Assembly (NCBI GenBank): GCA_050246755.1
Contig: JBFWVL010000001.1
Location: 1,198,486-1,262,485, forward strand
Length of the DNA: 64,000 nt
Source of the DNA: Bacteriovoracia bacterium
GTDB lineage: Bacteria; Bdellovibrionota; UBA1018; CAIPTA01
Reading direction: 5' to 3'
In this document: positions 1-8,835 of the stretch, piece after piece
Numbering within the stretch: the first letter of the stretch is position 1
Layout of the letters: every line of letters starts with the position of its first letter
Position numbers and translations under genes: made by a program
Notes under the pieces: generated by a model
What the model was told of the DNA's origin: nothing
The model's database searches: none
Seen by the model: the letters and a program-made list of their open reading frames with translations, nothing else

Positions 1-351
1 ATAACCCGAGGCACTTTTGGGATTTAAGGTTCTCTCCCAAGAATCCCAAAAATGTTGCGCCGTAAGGGGCACTCCGTCGCTCCATTTCAACCCGGGCTTC
101 AAGGTATAGGTATAGGTTTTTCCGTCTTTGGAAATTTTCCAGGTGGCGAGGCTCGGAACGGGCTCAAGCTTTTCATTGTATTCCGCAAGGCCTTCGATGA
201 GATGATAGAGAATTCCGATAGACACGAAGTCCGTAGCCAGATTCCAGTCCAAGGTGGGCGGTTCCGTCTCCACGCGTAGACTGAATTCTTGCTTTGCCGC
301 CTGAACGGGCAACACAAAAACGAAGGCGAGTGTTAAAAGTAAATATTTCAT
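1..351 (-). CDS. ABC transporter substrate-binding protein, family 5 (OppA/DppA-like); N-terminal part only, gene runs off the window start
   Basis: Open minus-strand frame from ATG (351..349) to the window edge, absent from the ORF track because it has no in-window stop. My translation MKYLLLTLAFVFVLPVQAAKQEFSLRVETEPPTLDWNLATDF...KTYTYTLKPGLKWSDGVPLTAQHF shows a signal peptide and the LKPGLKWSDG..P.TA motif typical of SBP_bac_5. Confidence 0.7.
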   Translation of the reverse strand, partial: MKYLLLTLAFVFVLPVQAAKQEFSLRVETEPPTLDWNLATDFVSIGILYHLIEGLAEYNEKLEPVPSLATWKISKDGKTYTYTLKPGLKWSDGVPLTAQHFWDSWERTLNPKSASGY

Positions 352-809
352 AAGAAATCTCTCTTGAATGGTGGACTCACTTAGGCGAGTTTTGAGCCGG
401 CGTTCCCCATTAACATAGCGCAATTTCTAGGAAAAAATTAGCTGGCGGGAAAAAATTGCACTCCGCCCTTGGTTATGGCCCGCCCGCACACCCAAAGCGG
501 TCGTCCCCATCGGACGGAAATACTTTTGAACATTCGAGCAATGATAGGCGACCGGAGGCCGATTTTTTCTCCAGATGTTTTAGAAAAATTCATCGACTAC
601 TCTTCCATAGCGAAAAATGGTGATGAAAGCCGGCTTGCGGTCAAATGCCGCCATTGTCCTTTTCCTCGACTAATCATGTAAACATTTCTCAACGCTCTCT
701 TGTCGAAATAAATATATTAATAAATATATTTCATGATTAGATTAGTAAAAAATACCAGCCGTCAAACTTGCGATTGGCACAGCTATTTTTTGGCATTGGA
801 GCGGGGGTT

Positions 810-2234
810 ATGAAACCAAAGGAAAAGTTCGCTCTCGGCACAGAACAGGCCTTCCGCGTTTTTTTGGACGCCGCCCCAGACGCCATCGTAGTAGTAGACG
901 ATGGTGGCCATATAGTGATGGCTAATAAATTGGCGGAAGTGATGTTCGCTTACTCTAAGGAAGATCTGCTAGGCCAACGGGTAGAGATGCTTCTTCCAGA
1001 GAAATCGCGCACCGTTCATATTAGCCATAGGACTGGTTATTTTCGTGACCCTAAAGTTCGTCCCATGGGAGAGGGGAGGGAACTCTCGGGGCGACGAAGA
1101 GATGGAACCGAGTTTCCTATCGAAATTTCTCTAAGTCCACTCCATACGGAGCAGGGCATTCTAGCTATCAGCATTATCCGCGATATCGCCCAGAGAAAGC
1201 AGCTGGAGGCTAAATTTCGCGGCCTCTTAGAATCCGCTCCAGATGGCATTGTGGTGGTGAATACTTCTGGTCACATTGTCATCGTCAATAGCCAAGTGGA
1301 AAAACTTTTTGGCTATGCAAGGGATGAGCTTGTTGGTCAACCCATCGAGATCCTAGTGCCCTCACAATTTAAAGATGGGCACATTAAGCTCCGAGATGGC
1401 TACATTCGTCACCCCAAAACCCGGCCCATGGGGGCTGGACGCGCACTTACAGGCCGAAAAAAAGATGGAACAGAATTTCCGGTGGAGATTTCCCTGAGCC
1501 CCCTAGAAACGGAGCAGGGAACTCTTGTCACAAGTATCGTCCGCGACATTACCGATCGAAGGCACGCAGAGGAACAGCTACAAGCCTCCTTACGAGAAAA
1601 GGAGGCCCTTCTTAAAGAAATCCACCATCGGGTAAAAAATAATCTCCAAGTAACTTCGAGCCTCCTTCGGCTTCAGTCCGATTACATCCAAGATCCAGGT
1701 GCACGCGAGATGTTCGCGGAAAGCCAAAACCGCATTCGCTCGATGGCTTTGGTGCATGAAAAGCTATATAGATCGAGCGATTTATCGCGGATTAATTTCT
1801 CCGAATACGTCGACAGCCTTGCCGGACTTCTCTTTCGTTCGTTTGGGGTAAATCCAAGCCAAATTCAATTCCAACTTACGCAAAGCTCTATTTTTCTCAG
1901 CGTAGAAACAGCCGTCCCTTGCGGTCTGATTATCAACGAGCTTCTTTCCAATTGCTTCAAGCACGCTTTTAAGAAAGGGCAACAAGGCGAGATCCGCGTA
2001 GAAACCAGCCTGGAGGGCGAGCACAAAGTGAAGTTTACGGTATCTGATAATGGGGTTGGATTGCCCAGTGGTTTTGATTTCGAAAAAATGGACACCCTCG
2101 GGCTACAGCTCGTGCGCACCCTGGTGAAGCAGCTCGATGGAGCCATCGAAATTCACGGTGACAAAGGTGCGGCCTTTACGGTGATTTTTTCTAAGGAAAG
2201 AGAACATGACGATGCAAGAAAGCAATCTAATTAA
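810..2234 (+). CDS. PAS-PAS sensor histidine kinase (HisKA_2-type H-box EIHHRVKNNLQ, C-terminal HATPase)
   Basis: ORF 768..2234; two repeated PAS-like blocks (...DGTEFPIEISLSPL... twice) followed by HHRVKNNLQVTSSLLRLQ and an ATPase region (DNGVGLP). Start placed at ATG 810, preceded by GGAG at 798..801; ATG 768 is the alternative. Confidence 0.8.
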   Translation: MKPKEKFALGTEQAFRVFLDAAPDAIVVVDDGGHIVMANKLAEVMFAYSKEDLLGQRVEMLLPEKSRTVHISHRTGYFRDPKVRPMGEGRELSGRRRDGTEFPIEISLSPLHTEQGILAISIIRDIAQRKQLEAKFRGLLESAPDGIVVVNTSGHIVIVNSQVEKLFGYARDELVGQPIEILVPSQFKDGHIKLRDGYIRHPKTRPMGAGRALTGRKKDGTEFPVEISLSPLETEQGTLVTSIVRDITDRRHAEEQLQASLREKEALLKEIHHRVKNNLQVTSSLLRLQSDYIQDPGAREMFAESQNRIRSMALVHEKLYRSSDLSRINFSEYVDSLAGLLFRSFGVNPSQIQFQLTQSSIFLSVETAVPCGLIINELLSNCFKHAFKKGQQGEIRVETSLEGEHKVKFTVSDNGVGLPSGFDFEKMDTLGLQLVRTLVKQLDGAIEIHGDKGAAFTVIFSKEREHDDARKQSN

Positions 2235-4119
2235 AATCCTTGTGGTAGAGGACGAGAGCATTGTGGCTCTTGACATTGAGCGTGGACTTAAAAGAATCGG
2301 TTACGATATTGCCGGTGTGGCTGATAACGGTTGCGATGCCATTCGTCTAGTGACGGAGAAGAGCCCACAGTTAGTCCTCATGGATATTCAGCTTAAGGGC
2401 GACATAGACGGAATCGAAACCGCGCAAAAAATTCACAGCCAATTTAATATTCCCGTCATTTTTCTTACGGCTTACGCTGATGAGCCCACCTTGCAAAGAG
2501 CCAAACTCACGGAACCTTTTGGCTATCTCTTAAAGCCGTTCGAGGAAACGGAACTGCGCACCGCGATTGAAGTGGCTCTCCACAAGCATAGTTCCGTAGA
2601 GATCCATAGGGAGAGGGCTGCGACCGCCTTGAAATTAAGTGAAGAGACTTTTCGCATTTTCGTGGAGTCCGTTCAAGATTATGGAATTTTCATGATGGAT
2701 CCTCTCGGTATGGTCATGAGCTGGAATATCGGCTCTCATCGAATCAAAGGCTACGAGGCACACGAGGTGATCGGAAAGCATTTTTCGATTTTTTATTCAG
2801 AAGAGGACATCGCCAACCGCAGGCCGGAGAAGGAACTCGCCATTGCCGAAAAAGAGGGAAGATATGAAGAAGAGTCATGGCGGGTGAGAAAAGATGGCAC
2901 TCGGTTCTGGACCAGAGTCACGATCACCGCCATTCGCGATAAGGAAGGCGCACTTCTCGCTTTCGGCAAAGTCACGCGAGATCTGACGCTGAAAAAGAAA
3001 GCGGAAGACGATTTACGAGAAAGCGAGGAGCGTAAGTCCGCTACGCTGGAGGCGGCTCTGGATTGCGTAGTAACGTTGGATAGCCAGGGAAAAATCTTAG
3101 AGGTTAACCAGGCAGCCGAAAAAACCTTCGGGTGGAAAAGAGAGCAGGTAATTGGCCGGGAAATGGCCAATATCATCATTCCAGAAAAACTTCGCGAAGC
3201 CCACCGCGCGGGACTAAAGCATTTTTTAGCCACGGGGATCGGGCCGGCTTTGCGACAACGGATTGAACTTTCCGCACTTCGCTCTGACGGTAGCGAGTTT
3301 CCAATTGAACTCTCTATTCTTGATCTTAATGTAAACGGCAAAGTGCTTTTTACCGGCTTTCTCCGCGACATCACAACCCAAAAGAAGGCAGAGGAAATTC
3401 TAAAAAATTCGATCAAAGCAAGAGACGAATTTCTCACCATTGCGTCCCATGAGCTTAAAACACCCCTGACCGCTCTAAAGCTTCAACTTCAGCTAAGCCA
3501 AATGCAGCTAAAGAAGCGTACAAAAACCACAGGAAAAAAGCGCACCCGGCCAGTAACTTTAGAGCGTTCATTGTCCCTCTCCATTAAGCAGGTAGATTCC
3601 CTAACCGGTCTCGTGGAAGAACTTCTTGATGTGGGAATGATTCAGACAGGACGACTTTCTTTGCATCTCGGGGAGATGAAACTATCGGATTTAGTACGAG
3701 AAGTGGTGAGTCTATTTTCGCCTAAACTCGCGATGATAAAATGCTCCCCAGAAACTGAGCTTGAAGACGGGATTGTCGGGAATTGGGATGCACATCGCAT
3801 AGAACAGGTATTGGTAAATTTGATTGGAAACATCATAAAATATGCTCCTGGCTCGAGAGTGAAAATCTCTACGAAGCGGGAAAACGACAAAGTCGTACTT
3901 ATGGTGGAGGATGATGGTCCGGGGATTCCGGAAGAAAAACAAAAGCAAATTTTTGAGCGATTTGAAAGAGCGACTTCTGCCAACTACGTTAGTGGCCTTG
4001 GTCTTGGCCTCTTCGTGGTGAAGCATATTGTCGAATCCCATCACGGGACAGTTCAGTTGCATAGTTCCTTGGGGCGTGGATCGCGATTTACGATCTCTCT
4101 TCCAGAAAAGGTAACTTAG
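2206..4119 (+). CDS. Hybrid response-regulator/sensor histidine kinase (N-terminal REC, PAS domains, HisKA, HATPase_c)
   Basis: N-terminus KILVVEDESIVALDIE...LVLMDIQLKGDIDG is a receiver domain; PAS-like segments; H-box IASHELKTPLTALK; G-boxes DDGPGIP and GLGLGLFVVKHIVESHHG. Overlaps the upstream kinase by 29 nt. Confidence 0.85.
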   Translation: MTMQESNLIKILVVEDESIVALDIERGLKRIGYDIAGVADNGCDAIRLVTEKSPQLVLMDIQLKGDIDGIETAQKIHSQFNIPVIFLTAYADEPTLQRAKLTEPFGYLLKPFEETELRTAIEVALHKHSSVEIHRERAATALKLSEETFRIFVESVQDYGIFMMDPLGMVMSWNIGSHRIKGYEAHEVIGKHFSIFYSEEDIANRRPEKELAIAEKEGRYEEESWRVRKDGTRFWTRVTITAIRDKEGALLAFGKVTRDLTLKKKAEDDLRESEERKSATLEAALDCVVTLDSQGKILEVNQAAEKTFGWKREQVIGREMANIIIPEKLREAHRAGLKHFLATGIGPALRQRIELSALRSDGSEFPIELSILDLNVNGKVLFTGFLRDITTQKKAEEILKNSIKARDEFLTIASHELKTPLTALKLQLQLSQMQLKKRTKTTGKKRTRPVTLERSLSLSIKQVDSLTGLVEELLDVGMIQTGRLSLHLGEMKLSDLVREVVSLFSPKLAMIKCSPETELEDGIVGNWDAHRIEQVLVNLIGNIIKYAPGSRVKISTKRENDKVVLMVEDDGPGIPEEKQKQIFERFERATSANYVSGLGLGLFVVKHIVESHHGTVQLHSSLGRGSRFTISLPEKVT

Positions 4120-4317
4120 CTCCGTTTTAAGCGTTTCGTTTCACGTCCGCTGCTCTTTGGAACGATAGCAACCGTATACCGATTTTTTCCTCCAGACGCT
4201 TACGAAACCTAGTTCAGCCTCAAAGTGGTGGACTCAACTGGACGAATTTCGAACTACGTACATCGAGTACGACGCCTAGATAAGTCCTTCTAATCTGAGA
4301 TTAATCCAGTTCGAGTG

Positions 4318-4346
4318 GGAACAAAAGTTGTGTTCCCGAGATTTTT
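4318..4346 (+). terminator. Candidate rho-independent terminator (GGGAACA-loop-TGTTCCC followed by GAGATTTTTCT)
   Basis: 7-bp perfect stem with 7-nt loop then a T-rich tract, in the convergent intergenic region between 4119 and 4357. Confidence 0.35.
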
Positions 4347-4356
4347 CTAGTGTTCC

Positions 4357-5388
4357 CTAAAATGACGACTCGAGAAATGAGAAGCGAGCTATTTTACCAG
4401 TAGCATCTAAACGACAGCGAACCTCTTGGGGAACCGTGATCATGGGAACAGTATGCCCACAGTCAAAATCGTAAATAATCGGATAATTCCGATTTCCAAT
4501 AACCTCAACGATCAAATCTCTGAGGTTATTGGATGATCCATCTTGGCTATAAACCTCTGGTCGGCTGAAGATCAAGCCCGCGATCGAATCGAAAGCCCCC
4601 ATCAGCTGAAGCTGGCGCAAGCCACGTTCCTCTTTCATCAAAGGGGCATCCATTTCTTCTAGAAGTAAGATTTTCCCTTTCAGGTCTGGCCAATAAGGGG
4701 TGCCGGCTGCACTCAAAAAGGTATTAAGATTTACAGCCACAATGGGAGCTTCCACCAATCCTGGTTGAATCACCTGCCAGCCATCATTCTCAATCCACTC
4801 TCTCGGTAAATTTTTCCAATCGTCATTTGTCCAGCTACGTTTGTGATTACTCCAACGAGAAGGCCGAACAATTTCTCGCTGCTTCGGACCATTTTCCATT
4901 ACAGCATCCAGAAACCACTTTGAGCTTTCCTCAATTCCATTTGGCCATTCCCCAAACCAGCACATCACTGTGGGGCCGTAAAATGTCCTCAGACGAGAAA
5001 ATTTCAATATAGATAGATGGAGCGAAGTCACATCCGAGTAGCCACAAATAACTTTGCGACTTTCACGTATCTCGTCAAAGTCTAGAAACGGAATCATACT
5101 GTTGGAGTTGTAGCCGCCGATAGTGGCCATCAGCGCATTCACTTGCGGATTTCGGATTAATGACATGAACTCGTCAGCACGCTCAGCGCCCGCTCCAGAA
5201 CGGTATCCATCCGCTGATCTTTTCTCGGTTAATTTCCCAAGCCTAATCTTGAATCCGAGCTTTTGAAGAGAGGAAAGACCATTTTCAAAAAGAGCATTGT
5301 TGAATTTATAGCCAGGAGAAGAAGGCGTGAAGACACCTATGGTGTCGCCGGCTCGCAATGGCCTTGGGGTAACAAGTGGTTTTTCCAT
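4357..5388 (-). CDS. S66 family LD-carboxypeptidase (LdcA/MccF-like)
   Basis: 343 aa; N-terminal GDTIGVFTPSSPG, mid GYSDVTSLH, C-terminal DFDCGHTVP: the nucleophile-elbow and catalytic-triad context of peptidase family S66. Confidence 0.75.
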   Translation of the reverse strand: MEKPLVTPRPLRAGDTIGVFTPSSPGYKFNNALFENGLSSLQKLGFKIRLGKLTEKRSADGYRSGAGAERADEFMSLIRNPQVNALMATIGGYNSNSMIPFLDFDEIRESRKVICGYSDVTSLHLSILKFSRLRTFYGPTVMCWFGEWPNGIEESSKWFLDAVMENGPKQREIVRPSRWSNHKRSWTNDDWKNLPREWIENDGWQVIQPGLVEAPIVAVNLNTFLSAAGTPYWPDLKGKILLLEEMDAPLMKEERGLRQLQLMGAFDSIAGLIFSRPEVYSQDGSSNNLRDLIVEVIGNRNYPIIYDFDCGHTVPMITVPQEVRCRLDATGKIARFSFLESSF

Positions 5389-5531
5389 GACTCAGTTTTC
5401 CCATCAGAAAGCTTGAATCCAAATCACATAATCAATACTTCGAAGTTCTAGTCCGGCTGAGTGTCGTCGCCCAGTCTGGCTTAATTTCGAATAGAAACTT
5501 CCGTAAAAAAACTCTCCAACCAGAATTCCGC

Positions 5532-5571
5532 ACTGAATACAGTATACTGCATACGGTATTCTGTATTCAGT
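5532..5571. repeat. 11-bp perfect inverted repeat (ACTGAATACAG / CTGTATTCAGT) with 18-nt spacer, 6 nt beyond the tRNA 3' end
   Basis: Read directly: 5532..5542 is the reverse complement of 5561..5571. Confidence 0.6.
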
Positions 5572-5577
5572 CTAGGA

Positions 5578-5654
5578 TGGTGGGCCCACCCGGACTTGAA
5601 CCGGGGACCAGAAGATTATGAGTCTCCTGCTCTAACCAACTGAGCTATAGGCCC
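5578..5654 (-). tRNA. tRNA with CAU anticodon (elongator Met or lysidine-modified Ile2), 77 nt with encoded CCA
   Basis: Minus-strand sequence GGGCCTATAGCTCAGTTGGTTAGAGCAGGAGACTCATAATCTTCTGGTCCCCGGTTCAAGTCCGGGTGGGCCCACCA: 7-bp acceptor stem, D-loop AGCTCAGTTGGTTAGAGC, anticodon loop CTCATAA, T-loop GGTTCAAGTCC. Closely resembles E. coli tRNA-Ile2/Met-type sequences. Confidence 0.9.
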
Positions 5655-5818: not shown

Positions 5819-7279
5819 ATGTCGGCTCTTTTATCCCTATTTATCTTTGCTCTCCTCTCTGCTGCCGCCTTTGCGGAGGAAGAATGCACCGACTATACGA
5901 TCCAAACCCAAAAGCAGACCCTCGGCCAGGTGGCACGAGAGGTATACGGCAAATCGCGGGAGTGGAAGAAGATCGCGGCCTGGAACAAAATTACGCCACC
6001 CTATCGCGTAAAAAAAGGCCAAGTGATCAAGCTCTGCGAAGCGCCGAAGCCCAAAAAGGCGAGCCAACTAGCCACCTCGCTTCCCTCCGATACGAAAGTA
6101 TCGAAAGGCAAGAAAATCGTGGCGGCTCCTCCGCCAAAAATCGCGGAGCCCGTGGAACTCGATGGCAGCTACCTGATGCCCGTTACCCAGGAAGTGATCG
6201 AGAAAGACGAAGAAACCATCTACGTGGTGAATGAGCGGGCGCCTTCCCTATCGATGATTGCGCTGGAACTGTATGGCGACGCGAAGCTCGGCAACGAAAT
6301 TGCTAAATGGAACCATCTTAGAAAGCCCTACAAGCTCGCGCTCGGCCAAAAACTCCGACTGAAACGCAAACCCACCAAAGACCCTAAAAAGGCCGATGAG
6401 TCTCTCGTGAACGCCTGGGAATCTTTGGGTAATGATTGGATGGCCGAACGGATCAAGAAGAGTGCAAGCAAGGTGGACGCCCCACCGGTGCCCGCCGATC
6501 TCGAACCCGAAGCCTTGCCGGTGGAAAAGTCTGCGGTAGTGGAAATAAAAACTCCTCGCGCCGATGCTCCCCTATTCGAGGCACCTACCGCCGTGATGGT
6601 CGAGGGCGAACATGAAACGCGCTGGACCACTTCCGGCGGGCCGACGTTTCAATTTTTTCGTATTAACGGCAGAGACAAAGCAACCGGCGCGGATGCTTTT
6701 CTTCTCTCAAAACTTAGCCCGGGCCTCGAAATAAATGTGGGGGCTCTCGTTCACCCAAGCGTCCGCGCACTGTTTCGTATCTCAGGCTACCGCTCTTCTC
6801 TTTATCCCAATACCGCGAGCACGGCCGTTATTGAAAACTCCCGGCAGACCGCGCTGCGTTTTGGCCTCGGCGCCGAGAAATTGTTTGGCGCACATACCTC
6901 GGTGGGCGCCCTGCTAAATTTTTCCGACGAGCTGTACGTGCGCGGCATCAGTGGGTTGAGCGGAGTGATGATGGATTCGGTAAAAGTATTTCGTACCGAT
7001 CTACATGGCCAATATGAACTTTTCCGCTATCGCGGCGGCCTCATGCGCGCAATGGCCGGGCTTGGTTTACTTTTTCCTGCTACCACTACTTTTTACCAAA
7101 CTCGAGCTGGATTAGCGGCCGGACTGGGCCTCGGTGCGGTTACGGAATTAGGCCGCGAGTGGAAGTTGGCATCCGACATCGAGTACCGCGTTCAAAGCCA
7201 AAGCACCTCGGTGCTAACTGCCAGCCGCAAGGATTTTATTTTAGGTTTTCAATTCGAATGGAAAGGCGATCCGCTATGA
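5819..7279 (+). CDS. Secreted protein with two LysM-like repeats and a C-terminal beta-strand-rich (possible outer-membrane barrel) domain
   Basis: ORF 5795..7279; start taken at ATG 5819 giving signal peptide MSALLSLFIFALLSAAAFA. Two ~45-aa LysM-like blocks (YTIQTQKQTLGQVAREVYG...WNKITPPYRVKKGQVIKL and YVVNERAPSLSMIALELYGD...WNHLRKPYKLALGQKLRL). C-terminal half has alternating hydrophobic/polar pattern. Confidence 0.6.
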   Translation: MSALLSLFIFALLSAAAFAEEECTDYTIQTQKQTLGQVAREVYGKSREWKKIAAWNKITPPYRVKKGQVIKLCEAPKPKKASQLATSLPSDTKVSKGKKIVAAPPPKIAEPVELDGSYLMPVTQEVIEKDEETIYVVNERAPSLSMIALELYGDAKLGNEIAKWNHLRKPYKLALGQKLRLKRKPTKDPKKADESLVNAWESLGNDWMAERIKKSASKVDAPPVPADLEPEALPVEKSAVVEIKTPRADAPLFEAPTAVMVEGEHETRWTTSGGPTFQFFRINGRDKATGADAFLLSKLSPGLEINVGALVHPSVRALFRISGYRSSLYPNTASTAVIENSRQTALRFGLGAEKLFGAHTSVGALLNFSDELYVRGISGLSGVMMDSVKVFRTDLHGQYELFRYRGGLMRAMAGLGLLFPATTTFYQTRAGLAAGLGLGAVTELGREWKLASDIEYRVQSQSTSVLTASRKDFILGFQFEWKGDPL

Positions 7280-8835
7280 AATTAAAAAAGTACTCGCGGC
7301 TCGCTCTTTTATTGTCGTTGTTTTTGGTGGCCTGCAATCCGCTGGGCGATAGCGATTCTAGCAAAATACCGCTGGATTTTCATCCGGGCGCTAGCGTTCC
7401 CGCTACTCCGGATACCATTTCACCTTCCGTGAGCTTTTCGAATGGCACGGGTAGTAGCATCCCCGCTTCCGTTACCCTAACCTTCAGTGAAGGAGTCTAT
7501 GGGCTAAGCACAGGTGCCGTATCCCTCTCCACTTCCACGCTCTGCGCGGCCACGATTAGTTCCGTGACCTTCAACGCCGGAGCTTCCACTGCCACCGTAA
7601 ACCTCGGCGGAACCTTGAATCGCCTCGGAGATATTTGCACGCTCACGATTGATTCCAGCCAGGTGAAGGATGCCGCGAATAACTTTCTCACCGGAACGGC
7701 GGCCAAAATCCTTTCGGTTGATACCGTAACCGCGGCCAATCAGCAGGTGAATGTATACGCGTCCGTCACAAACGCGACTCTATCCGCGGGCGCGACCGCG
7801 ATCGACCTCAATAGCGCAACCGGATTCTACGTAGGCGACAAAGCACTCGTGATTCAGATGCAGAATAGCGTGACGCCCGCCCTCGCCGGCACCTACGAGA
7901 TCGTGCAAATTTCGGGAATCGCCGGAAATCAAATCACTCTTTCCGCTGGACTAGCGAATGCCTACGTTTCCAATACATTTGGAACCACTGCCTCGAAGGC
8001 AGCTCAAGTTTTGCGTTTGCCTCGCTTTACCAATTTTAATATCGCTTCTGGAGGATCGGTAGTAGCTCCGGCCTGGGATGGTAGTACGGGAGGGATCGTG
8101 GCCGTGAATGCCAGCGGCTCCATTACCATCGCTGGATCTATTGACGTGGCCGCCAAAGGATTTCGGGGCGGCACTACCACTGCCAACCTTGCCTGCGGGG
8201 CGATGCCTTCCGTGTCTGCAACGGCAGGAGAATCGGTAGCCGGTATCGGTTCAGCAACTACCGCCACAAACCAATCCGGTGGGGGAGCAGGAAATTCCGG
8301 ACAGTGCAGCTTTGGTGGATACATCGGCGCCGCCGGGGGGGGCGGAGGTGGCTATGGCGCGGCCGGAGAAGACCGCTCGGCGTATACTTCGGGAGCTACA
8401 GTGGTTCAGGGTACGGGCGGCCCGGTAACCGGCGTGGCCACATTAGCGCGAATCTTACTCGGATCGGGCGGCGGGGCCGGAGGGTCCCATGACGCAGGCG
8501 TGGCGGGAGCCGGAGGAATTGGTGGTGGCGCCGCAATTCTTTTCGCAAATTCCATCTCCGTCACTGGCTCTATCGCCGCCACCGGAGCCGCAGGAACTGG
8601 CTGCACCAGCCCCGATGGGTCGGGCGGCGGCGGCGCGGGTGGAAGTATTTATTTGAACGCCACGAATGCTGTCACGGTGGGAACAAACCTCGTGACCGCC
8701 CTGGGCGGCGCACGCGGACTCTGCACCGACGCACAACCTAATCCCGACTACCGTACCGGTGGAGCCGGAGGGGAAGGAAGAATCAAAGTAGTAGGTGGTT
8801 CGGTCAACGGAACAACTAATCCCATCTCGCCCTAA
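7276..8835 (+). CDS. Lipoprotein with Ig-like N-terminal region and glycine-rich repeat domain (adhesin-like)
   Basis: ORF 7159..8835; start taken at ATG 7276 (ATGA overlap with upstream stop) giving MKLKKYSRLALLLSLFLVAC lipoprotein signal. Followed by S/T-rich segment and long GGxGG/GAGG-rich repeats. Confidence 0.6.
   Translation: MKLKKYSRLALLLSLFLVACNPLGDSDSSKIPLDFHPGASVPATPDTISPSVSFSNGTGSSIPASVTLTFSEGVYGLSTGAVSLSTSTLCAATISSVTFNAGASTATVNLGGTLNRLGDICTLTIDSSQVKDAANNFLTGTAAKILSVDTVTAANQQVNVYASVTNATLSAGATAIDLNSATGFYVGDKALVIQMQNSVTPALAGTYEIVQISGIAGNQITLSAGLANAYVSNTFGTTASKAAQVLRLPRFTNFNIASGGSVVAPAWDGSTGGIVAVNASGSITIAGSIDVAAKGFRGGTTTANLACGAMPSVSATAGESVAGIGSATTATNQSGGGAGNSGQCSFGGYIGAAGGGGGGYGAAGEDRSAYTSGATVVQGTGGPVTGVATLARILLGSGGGAGGSHDAGVAGAGGIGGGAAILFANSISVTGSIAATGAAGTGCTSPDGSGGGGAGGSIYLNATNAVTVGTNLVTALGGARGLCTDAQPNPDYRTGGAGGEGRIKVVGGSVNGTTNPISP

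Follow-up and report, generated by a model that had tools for sequence, protein, structure and literature searches.

The sequence analysed here is a window of 64,000 nucleotides (the window being the whole stretch under study) from a Bacteriovoracia bacterium (GTDB lineage Bacteria; Bdellovibrionota; UBA1018; CAIPTA01), corresponding to positions 1,198,486 to 1,262,485 of the forward strand of contig JBFWVL010000001.1 in the NCBI GenBank assembly GCA_050246755.1. Its minus strand carries, at positions 4357 to 5388, a gene for a serine peptidase of family S66, which includes both LdcA, the LD-carboxypeptidase of cell-wall recycling, and MccF, the self-immunity enzyme against microcin C (McC). 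An earlier reading of this DNA, made from its letters and its open reading frames (ORFs) and called below the sequence-only reading, had proposed an MccF-like enzyme and had seen in its location next to a transfer RNA (tRNA) gene a possible sign of acquired resistance. The present analysis places the protein within the MccF clade, in a sister subfamily of the canonical microcin C enzymes. The parts of the gene on which this assignment depends are the following.

4357..5388, minus strand: coding sequence (CDS) of an S66 serine peptidase of the MccF clade, Bdellovibrionota-type subfamily; ORF with an ATG start, 343 amino acids (aa), both Pfam domains, best matches in the Protein Data Bank (PDB) being MccF.
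5035..5037, minus strand: codon of the catalytic nucleophile Ser118 (GYSD motif), equivalent to Ser118 of Escherichia coli MccF (EcMccF) and Ser112 of Bacillus anthracis MccF (BaMccF); from alignment, invariant in 120 of 120 family members.
4657..4659, minus strand: codon of the triad residue Glu244 (EcMccF Glu243); from alignment and family conservation.
4453..4455, minus strand: codon of the triad residue His312 (EcMccF His311, BaMccF His303); from alignment and family conservation, S112A and H303A mutants being found in PDB titles.
4771..4863, minus strand: lid loop, residues 176-206 (P-x-R-W-S-N-H-x-R-x-W186-x-N-G-D-W-K-x-x-P-R-E-W-x-x-N-x-G-W), with Trp186; from alignment, absent from LdcA and YkfA.
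4642..4650, minus strand: codons of Asp247-Ala248-Pro249, replacing Arg246-Lys247-Ser248 of EcMccF in an altered side-chain pocket; from gap-free alignment.

The claim of the sequence-only reading that this ORF is a real S66 peptidase gene encoding 343 aa is confirmed by the ORF call and by two Pfam domains scoring far above their gathering thresholds: PF02016 with 105.6 bits over residues 17-138 (threshold 25) and PF17676 with 87.2 bits over residues 214-327 (threshold 23.7). The N-terminus shows neither a hydrophobic segment nor a signal peptide, and the domain begins at residue 14. Ser118, His312 and Glu244 align with the catalytic triads of EcMccF, BaMccF and E. coli LdcA (EcLdcA), and all three are invariant in 120 of 120 family members. 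The protein is an intact, selected, cytoplasmic and stand-alone serine hydrolase of family S66, with a Ser118-His312-Glu244 triad. A 100% identical protein exists in the databases on a 1.9 Mb contig, under the name 'MAG: LD-carboxypeptidase [Bacteriovoracia bacterium]' (MAG, metagenome-assembled genome).

Such a label suggests an enzyme in the sense of LdcA or YkfA, trimming the terminal D-Ala from murein tetrapeptides during the recycling of the bacterium's own wall or of a digested prey wall. Several observations are compatible with this activity. Homologs are annotated 'muramoyltetrapeptide carboxypeptidase LdcA' in their source records, the fold and the triad are common to LdcA and the window protein, the family is kept across predatory Bdellovibrionota, which handle much peptidoglycan, and its native composition in most relatives suggests a housekeeping role. 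The source names, however, are inferred to come from an assignment at the level of COGs that also covers MccF, and the scores lead in another direction. Against the NCBIfam LdcA equivalog NF008424, the protein obtains 78.5 bits for a curated cut-off of 378. In a sequence search of the PDB with phmmer, it matches BaMccF with 226 bits (E 5e-66) and EcMccF with 201 bits; other S66 structures (BA_5613, Lmo1638, Ba3275) reach 104-136 bits and the true LD-carboxypeptidases (E. coli 5Z01, Oxalobacter 6UUK, Pseudomonas aeruginosa 1ZRS) 29-61 bits.

The same ranking is obtained with the fold. An AlphaFold (AF2) model of the protein was built from an alignment of 50 family sequences, with a mean local confidence (pLDDT) of 92.7 and a predicted template modelling score (pTM) of 0.92. 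When this model was compared to the PDB with Foldseek, the top matches were the two MccF enzymes, with template modelling (TM) scores of 0.91-0.92 and root mean square deviations (rmsd) of 1.8-2.0 Å, followed by other structures of the 'MccF clade' (TM about 0.85) and by LdcA (0.70-0.76). In alignments to the references, the identity of the protein is 34% with EcMccF, 37% with BaMccF and 23% with EcLdcA. The references were taken from annotated records and comprise E. coli LdcA, AgnC5 of the agrocin 84 plasmid, YkfA of Bacillus velezensis (encoded beside a dipeptide epimerase) and several others. The E. coli MccF reference comes from a plasmid bearing a cluster of ThiF-type, major facilitator superfamily (MFS), methyltransferase, GNAT and S66 genes, which was taken as mccB-mccF.

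The phylogeny gives a consistent picture. In a neighbor-joining (NJ) tree of 48 sequences with 300 bootstraps, the family of the window protein forms a clade at 93% and canonical MccF (E. coli, B. anthracis, Vibrio, Paraclostridium and Pediococcus) another one at 100%. These two groups, AgnC5 and a Streptomyces protein are joined at 85%, with LdcA, YkfA and a Legionella enzyme outside. The sequence-only reading had named clustering with LdcA orthologs as the result that would speak against it; this tree provides the test, and no such clustering was seen. By BLAST bit scores, moreover, the protein and the canonical MccF group are mutual best matches outside their own groups. The equivalog score, the PDB search, the fold, the tree and the reciprocal BLAST therefore bear out the proposal of an MccF-like protein as opposed to a housekeeping LdcA. 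The argument from size made in the same reading holds as well: EcMccF has 344 aa and EcLdcA 304 aa, and the gap corresponds to a lid insertion of about 25 residues, adjoining the active site, that is present in the window protein and absent from EcLdcA, YkfA and the Legionella protein. Finally, neither a murein-recycling gene nor a dipeptide epimerase adjoins the gene, unlike ykfA of B. velezensis. Taken together with the low identity to EcLdcA and the separate position in the tree, these data make an LD-carboxypeptidase activity unlikely, and by sequence, fold and phylogeny the protein is a lid-bearing member of the MccF clade and not an LdcA.

Membership in this clade is not orthology with the microcin C enzymes. 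Since the protein lies outside the canonical clade supported at 100%, in its own clade supported at 93%, it is not an ortholog of E. coli or B. anthracis MccF and belongs to a distinct sister subfamily. The lid is the most characteristic part of this subfamily. Its motif reads WSNHxRxWxNGDWKxxPREWxxNxGW, versus WSDExINW in canonical MccF, and all 120 of 120 members carry S180, H182, R184, W186, W191, R196, W198 and W204. This invariance argues that the lid would bind something specific. Trp186 of the lid aligns with Trp186 of EcMccF (W180 of BaMccF), for which W186F and W180A mutant entries are present among the PDB titles. Asn222, equivalent to EcMccF Asn220, is kept and invariant in the family, and Arg255 (EcMccF Arg254) is kept.

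The pocket expected to receive the side chain of the substrate is different. In PDB 3TLY (title: S118A/N220A/K247A), both Asn220 and Lys247 have been mutated. Agarwal et al. reportedly described in 2012 that this pair sets the specificity for acidic side chains, and that changing both residues switched EcMccF from acidic to aromatic aminoacyl-adenylates. Of 120 members of the subfamily, 113 have Ala248 and 104 have Pro249; the Lys247 to Ala call is secure because the alignment is gap-free between the triad Glu and the conserved Arg255. The altered pocket argues for a substrate that would not be aspartyl-AMP (AMP, adenosine monophosphate). Given Ala-Pro in place of Lys247 and a remodelled, invariant lid rich in Trp, Arg and His, processed microcin C is probably not the substrate that the enzyme prefers. 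The residue roles used here rest in part on PMC8323819 and on the titles of PDB entries; in EcMccF, W186 stacks on the adenine of processed McC (PMC8323819).

The subfamily is widely distributed. Homologs 55-67% identical to the window protein occur throughout Bdellovibrio, Halobacteriovorax and Bacteriovorax and in many related MAGs, and when one genome per species was scanned with two peptide patterns specific to the subfamily, 374 species matched. Taxonomy was considered for the best 80 of these 374 matching species, which are mostly Bdellovibrionota and include also Planctomycetota, Gemmatimonadota, Fusobacteriaceae and Deinococcus pimensis. Predators outside the Bdellovibrionota are found among these best 80 (L024, L027, L020, L060, L051) with 46-58% identity, namely two complete genomes of Ca. 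Uabimicrobium (56-58%), Bradymonadales and Myxococcota. The copies of Uabimicrobium and Bradymonadales fall within the Bdellovibrionota sequences of the NJ tree, a topology that suggests a transfer between predators. In a larger collection of 1.84 billion cluster representatives, 8600 S66 relatives were found at E <=0.001 and only 349 at E <=1e-30; among the nearest 150 representatives the lid Trp is common and the Lys247 signature is rare.

At two loci outside the window, the neighbors of the S66 gene are reminiscent of detoxification or of mobile elements. On plasmid p2 of Cetobacterium somerae (L089), the S66 gene stands among three GNAT acetyltransferases, a methylthioadenosine/S-adenosylhomocysteine (MTA/SAH) nucleosidase and a Fic protein. 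On a Bdellovibrionota MAG contig (L101), it is found near a DJ-1/NUDIX gene, a GNAT, several helix-turn-helix (HTH) regulators and a resolvase.

On the basis of the analogy with MccF, a mechanism can be proposed that is the most likely of those considered here. A substrate with a nucleotide-like leaving group would bind as in the E. coli and B. anthracis enzymes, its base stacking on Trp186 of the lid, and the amide-type bond between the aminoacyl or peptidyl group and the nucleotide moiety would then be cut. The outcome would be the destruction of non-hydrolysable mimics of aminoacyl-adenylates that poison aminoacyl-tRNA synthetases. The preferred substrate would probably be a different aminoacyl-nucleotide or a related conjugate and not processed microcin C. 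That the enzyme hydrolyses an aminoacyl- or peptidyl-nucleotide-like amide link, as MccF does with McC and with aminoacyl-sulfamoyl-adenylates, and that its preference is for non-acidic groups, is a proposal that we infer from these comparisons and whose chances we regard as evenly balanced. Several MccF subfamilies with different aminoacyl specificities are said to have been proposed already by Nocek et al. in 2012.

Known properties of the family and a few genes of the wider clade are in agreement with this proposal. LdcA cannot protect against McC (PMC8323819), the stand-alone MccF ortholog of B. anthracis is active (PMC8323819), and stand-alone mccF homologs are common (PMC4010828; also PMC8323819). 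In the wider clade, hints are provided by a fusion with a synthetase-like protein, by the GNATs around the Cetobacterium copy and by the presence of AgnC5 in the agrocin 84 cluster. The fusion is found in a distant homolog, a cluster representative of 822 aa (P0223), in which a class II aminoacyl-tRNA synthetase resembling the lysyl enzyme LysRS (PF01336 and PF00152; best NCBIfam matches LysX and LysS) is followed by a C-terminal, lid-bearing S66 domain. This 'Rosetta-stone' protein hints at a link between MccF-like peptidases and the chemistry of aminoacyl-adenylates; it comes from one metagenomic representative only, and may be an artefact of gene calling.

Other observations weigh against hydrolysis of an aminoacyl-nucleotide. 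The subfamily has no characterised member, the activity of the window protein being only predicted. In the pocket, the replacement of EcMccF Lys247 by Ala248 and of Arg246 by Asp247 is accompanied by changes from Ser144 to Trp144, His148 to Trp148 and His313 to Val314, so that the transfer of the substrate from MccF is uncertain. Homologs of MccB, MccC, MccD and MccE are absent from the 64 kb window (tblastn, E < 0.01). When the ORFs of 84 related loci were clustered all against all, no neighbor family recurred in more than 8 of them or kept a fixed position, and GNAT neighbors, which would be MccE-like, were detected by an iterative hidden Markov model (HMM) search within 3 kb in 6 of the 84 loci, a proportion not clearly above chance. 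The wide presence in Bdellovibrionota and the host-like composition in most relatives are also a better fit to a conserved physiological role than to a sporadic resistance. As to the resistance to microcin C itself suggested by the sequence-only reading, it is not sustained: mcc genes are not found nearby in the window, and Lys247 of EcMccF, which belongs to the pocket for the acidic side chain, is Ala here.

These differences leave room for the hydrolysis of some other conjugate, neither an antibiotic nor a murein peptide, for instance a small peptide or metabolite, nucleotide-linked or otherwise modified, that the cell would encounter while preying or in its ordinary metabolism; the Trp/Arg/His lid would then confer a new specificity. 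The lid motif, invariant in 120 members and different from that of canonical MccF, and the divergent pocket residues would fit such a role, as would the lack of conserved neighbors and the presence of the subfamily in unrelated predators (Ca. Uabimicrobium, Bradymonadales, Myxococcota). A member of the wider subfamily that is 48% identical to the window protein (P0122, 464 aa) carries in addition a C-terminal DUF952 after its S66 domain, a fusion pointing the same way. Positive evidence for any particular substrate is however absent, and the retention of Trp186 and Asn222 together with the close fold match to nucleotide-bound MccF structures favors an MccF-like ligand; this possibility is accordingly judged rather doubtful. 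A more specific scenario can be drawn from the taxonomy, in which the Trp/Arg/His-lid subfamily would be an MccF-like class characteristic of predators. The conserved lid of this class would bind a substrate that is linked to a nucleotide but is not microcin C, for example so as to disarm aminoacyl-nucleotide toxins coming from the prey cytoplasm or to salvage nucleotide-linked peptides such as UDP-MurNAc-peptides (uridine diphosphate-N-acetylmuramic acid peptides), and the gene would have spread among predators by horizontal transfer. This scenario is speculative, and we consider it improbable.

The surroundings of the gene in the window raise the separate question of its origin. The features concerned are listed below.

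1..5577, no strand assigned: compositionally foreign block with two PAS sensor-kinase genes and the S66 gene; defined by composition, open at the left edge of the window and ending at the tRNA.
5578..5654, minus strand: tRNA with anticodon CAT; found by ARAGORN, 69.5 bits with the Rfam tRNA model; located 190 bp upstream of the S66 start codon, at the boundary of the low-GC block (GC, guanine plus cytosine content).
5533..5571, minus strand: strong stem-loop directly 3' of the tRNA, 11+4 bp, without a U-tract; -20.8 kcal/mol, z -5.3, none of 200 shuffles being as stable.
5389..5532, minus strand: spacer for the S66 gene's own promoter and 5' untranslated region; from its position between hairpin and start codon.

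The block has a GC content of 47.2% versus 52.7% for the window, and with a tetranucleotide z of 4.5 and a dinucleotide z of 3.0 (values computed for 1-5500) it is the strongest outlier of the 64 kb. The compositional transition coincides with the tRNA. With 46.1% GC (z -2.9) and 45.3% GC at third codon positions (GC3; z -2.7), the S66 gene has the lowest values among the 31 genes of the window, the second and third lowest being those of the two adjacent kinase genes. In 50 related loci the gene is usually host-like (median dGC3 +0.004), and no copy departs from its host as far as that of the window. At the DNA level, homology to the two nearest relatives (nucleotide identity of 76.5% and 74.4%, protein identity of 87% and 83%) is confined exactly to the CDS, and the contigs of these relatives have a GC content of 45.5-46.4%, which is the composition of the window S66 gene and not that of the window genome. 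A related member of the Bdellovibrionota with a GC content near 46% was probably the donor of the low-GC block, which either entered the genome as such or replaced an earlier version by recombination. The S66 gene nests in a clade widespread in Bdellovibrionota, and any donor is therefore a related predator and not a distant reservoir of resistance.

A local horizontal acquisition of the block is thus plausible, not proven, and the block may be part of a larger island. An island is not favored by the lack of an integrase or recombinase gene in positions 1-5577, the left end of the block being outside the window, nor by the 3' end of the tRNA, which is not repeated anywhere in the window. For the neighboring kinase, a 10.5 kb Logan contig was the single other contig retrieved, and it reaches no farther to the left. 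The word 'acquired' in the sequence-only reading consequently stands in part. It agrees with the lowest GC and GC3 of the window, with an outlier block ending at a tRNA and with the restriction of homology to the CDS; it does not agree with the missing integrase and tRNA-end repeat, with a clade found Bdellovibrionota-wide or with a tRNA adjacency that is not a property of the family. A foreign segment could also carry the gene as a decaying passenger without function in its host, as its GC3, the lowest of the window, and its unconserved flanks might evoke. The frame is nevertheless intact and of full length, every invariant residue of the family is kept, and the identity to relatives (83-93% for the protein, 74-77% for the DNA) indicates purifying selection, which makes a functionless passenger extremely improbable.

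The neighbors of the S66 gene are, on one side, the two PAS sensor kinases and, on the other, a LysM-like protein, a secreted Gly-rich protein, a histidine kinase, rpoD, dnaG and a YqeY-like gene. The contexts in Bdellovibrio bacteriovorus, Bdellovibrio svalbardensis and other relatives are mutually unrelated. A second S66 gene is absent from the 64 kb window (tblastn). At positions 1-700 there are small ORFs that seem to be non-coding, since they are interrupted by stops or match nothing. The ORF at 7159-8835 on the plus strand has a lipoprotein-like N-terminus, a repetitive C-terminal half rich in Gly, Ala and Thr with a local GC content of up to 65%, and a marginal match to Big_5.

The tRNA at 5578-5654 was labelled tRNA-Met(CAT) by ARAGORN. 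It is not an initiator tRNA because G1 and C72 are paired. It also contains the pairs C4-G69 and C5-G68, which resemble those of E. coli ileX, and it may be a lysidine-modified tRNA-Ile2 and not an elongator tRNA-Met. The stem-loop that follows it probably serves to terminate or process the tRNA transcript, and to insulate the peptidase gene from it. Given this hairpin, a separate promoter for the S66 gene is presumably located in the roughly 145 bp that are left. A scan of this upstream spacer with the sigma-70 consensus gave no promoter-like site, this consensus being uninformative for the phylum. The sequence-only reading had placed the gene with a tRNA on one side and a long promoter region on the other. 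The tRNA is indeed present, on the same strand and at 190 bp; the long promoter region is not, since only these 190 bp lie upstream, partly occupied by the hairpin, and the spacer of 237 bp on the other side (4120-4356) lies between convergent genes.

Adjacency to a tRNA was considered as a family trait and rejected: 4 of 60 loci have any tRNA within 300 bp, and none of these is a tRNA-CAT. The relatives with 87% and 83% identity have no tRNA at their S66 gene, and the adjacency is peculiar to this genome. The segment L085:677-738, which lies upstream of the homolog with 87% identity, contains two colinear 11-mers (CAGTTGGTTAG and GGCCCACCATC) that are also found in the window tRNA with a similar spacing. 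Neither ARAGORN nor Rfam detected a tRNA in this segment, and its MAFFT alignment was unconvincing; the 11-mers could be the remnant of a decayed tRNA or of an att site, or be due to chance.

With respect to annotation, these results correct the automatic label of 'LdcA' or 'LD-carboxypeptidase' for the window protein and for hundreds of Bdellovibrionota homologs. They also define an uncharacterised sister subfamily of MccF by a signature composed of MCWFGEWP, the WSNHxRxW lid and Ala-Pro in replacement of Lys247. If the subfamily does detoxify aminoacyl-nucleotides with another side-chain preference, it would represent a wider reservoir of resistance to Trojan-horse inhibitors of aminoacyl-tRNA synthetases, and might inform how predators cope with toxins derived from their prey. 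Stand-alone mccF homologs being already known (PMC4010828, PMC8323819), the result is an incremental refinement of annotation.

The closest known system is MccF itself, which cleaves microcin C at the carboxamide bond linking its aspartyl or peptidyl part to its AMP part, and whose structures are available for B. anthracis (PDB 3GJZ, 3T5M, 5K99) and for the E. coli mcc plasmid (3TLA-3TLZ). The window protein is similar to it in length (343 versus 336-344 aa), in fold (TM 0.91-0.92 for an rmsd of about 1.9 Å) and in its equivalent triad. It shares also the lid with Trp186, Asn222 (EcMccF Asn220), Arg255 (EcMccF Arg254) and the lack of a signal peptide. As in B. anthracis, the gene is chromosomal and stands alone. 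It differs from E. coli mccF, which is linked to mccABCDE, by the absence of these genes nearby; this linkage is not strictly defining, as the B. anthracis gene shows. The identity is 34-37%, compared to 59% between the E. coli and B. anthracis enzymes, in keeping with the separate clades (93% and 100%), and the lid is 2-3 residues longer with the invariant motif WSNHxRxW...W...R.W...W. The proteins BA_5613 (4E5S), Lmo1638 (4H1H, 4INJ) and Ba3275 (5F1Y, 5F5X, the latter with AMP bound according to its PDB title) are likewise lid-bearing, stand-alone S66 enzymes, but they are farther from the window protein than canonical MccF is (104-136 versus 201-226 bits, TM of 0.85 versus 0.92).

AgnC5, the 'MccF-like protein' of the agrocin 84 cluster on pAgK84 of Rhizobium rhizogenes K84, belongs to the same super-clade (85%), has a lid with two Trp and an Ala at the position of Lys247, and is tied to a Trojan-horse nucleotide antibiotic. 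It is 30% identical to the window protein, from which it differs by its location inside a biosynthetic cluster and by a Glu at the position of Asn220. LdcA (E. coli b1192, P. aeruginosa PA5198) and YkfA of the Bacillus subtilis group share with the window protein the S66 family, the two-domain fold and the triad. In contrast to it, they have no lid insertion, measure 297-315 aa, show 23-26% identity, fall outside the MccF super-clade and occur in a context of murein or peptide recycling (emtA, or a dipeptide epimerase with a peptide ATP-binding cassette (ABC) transporter) that is absent at the locus described here.

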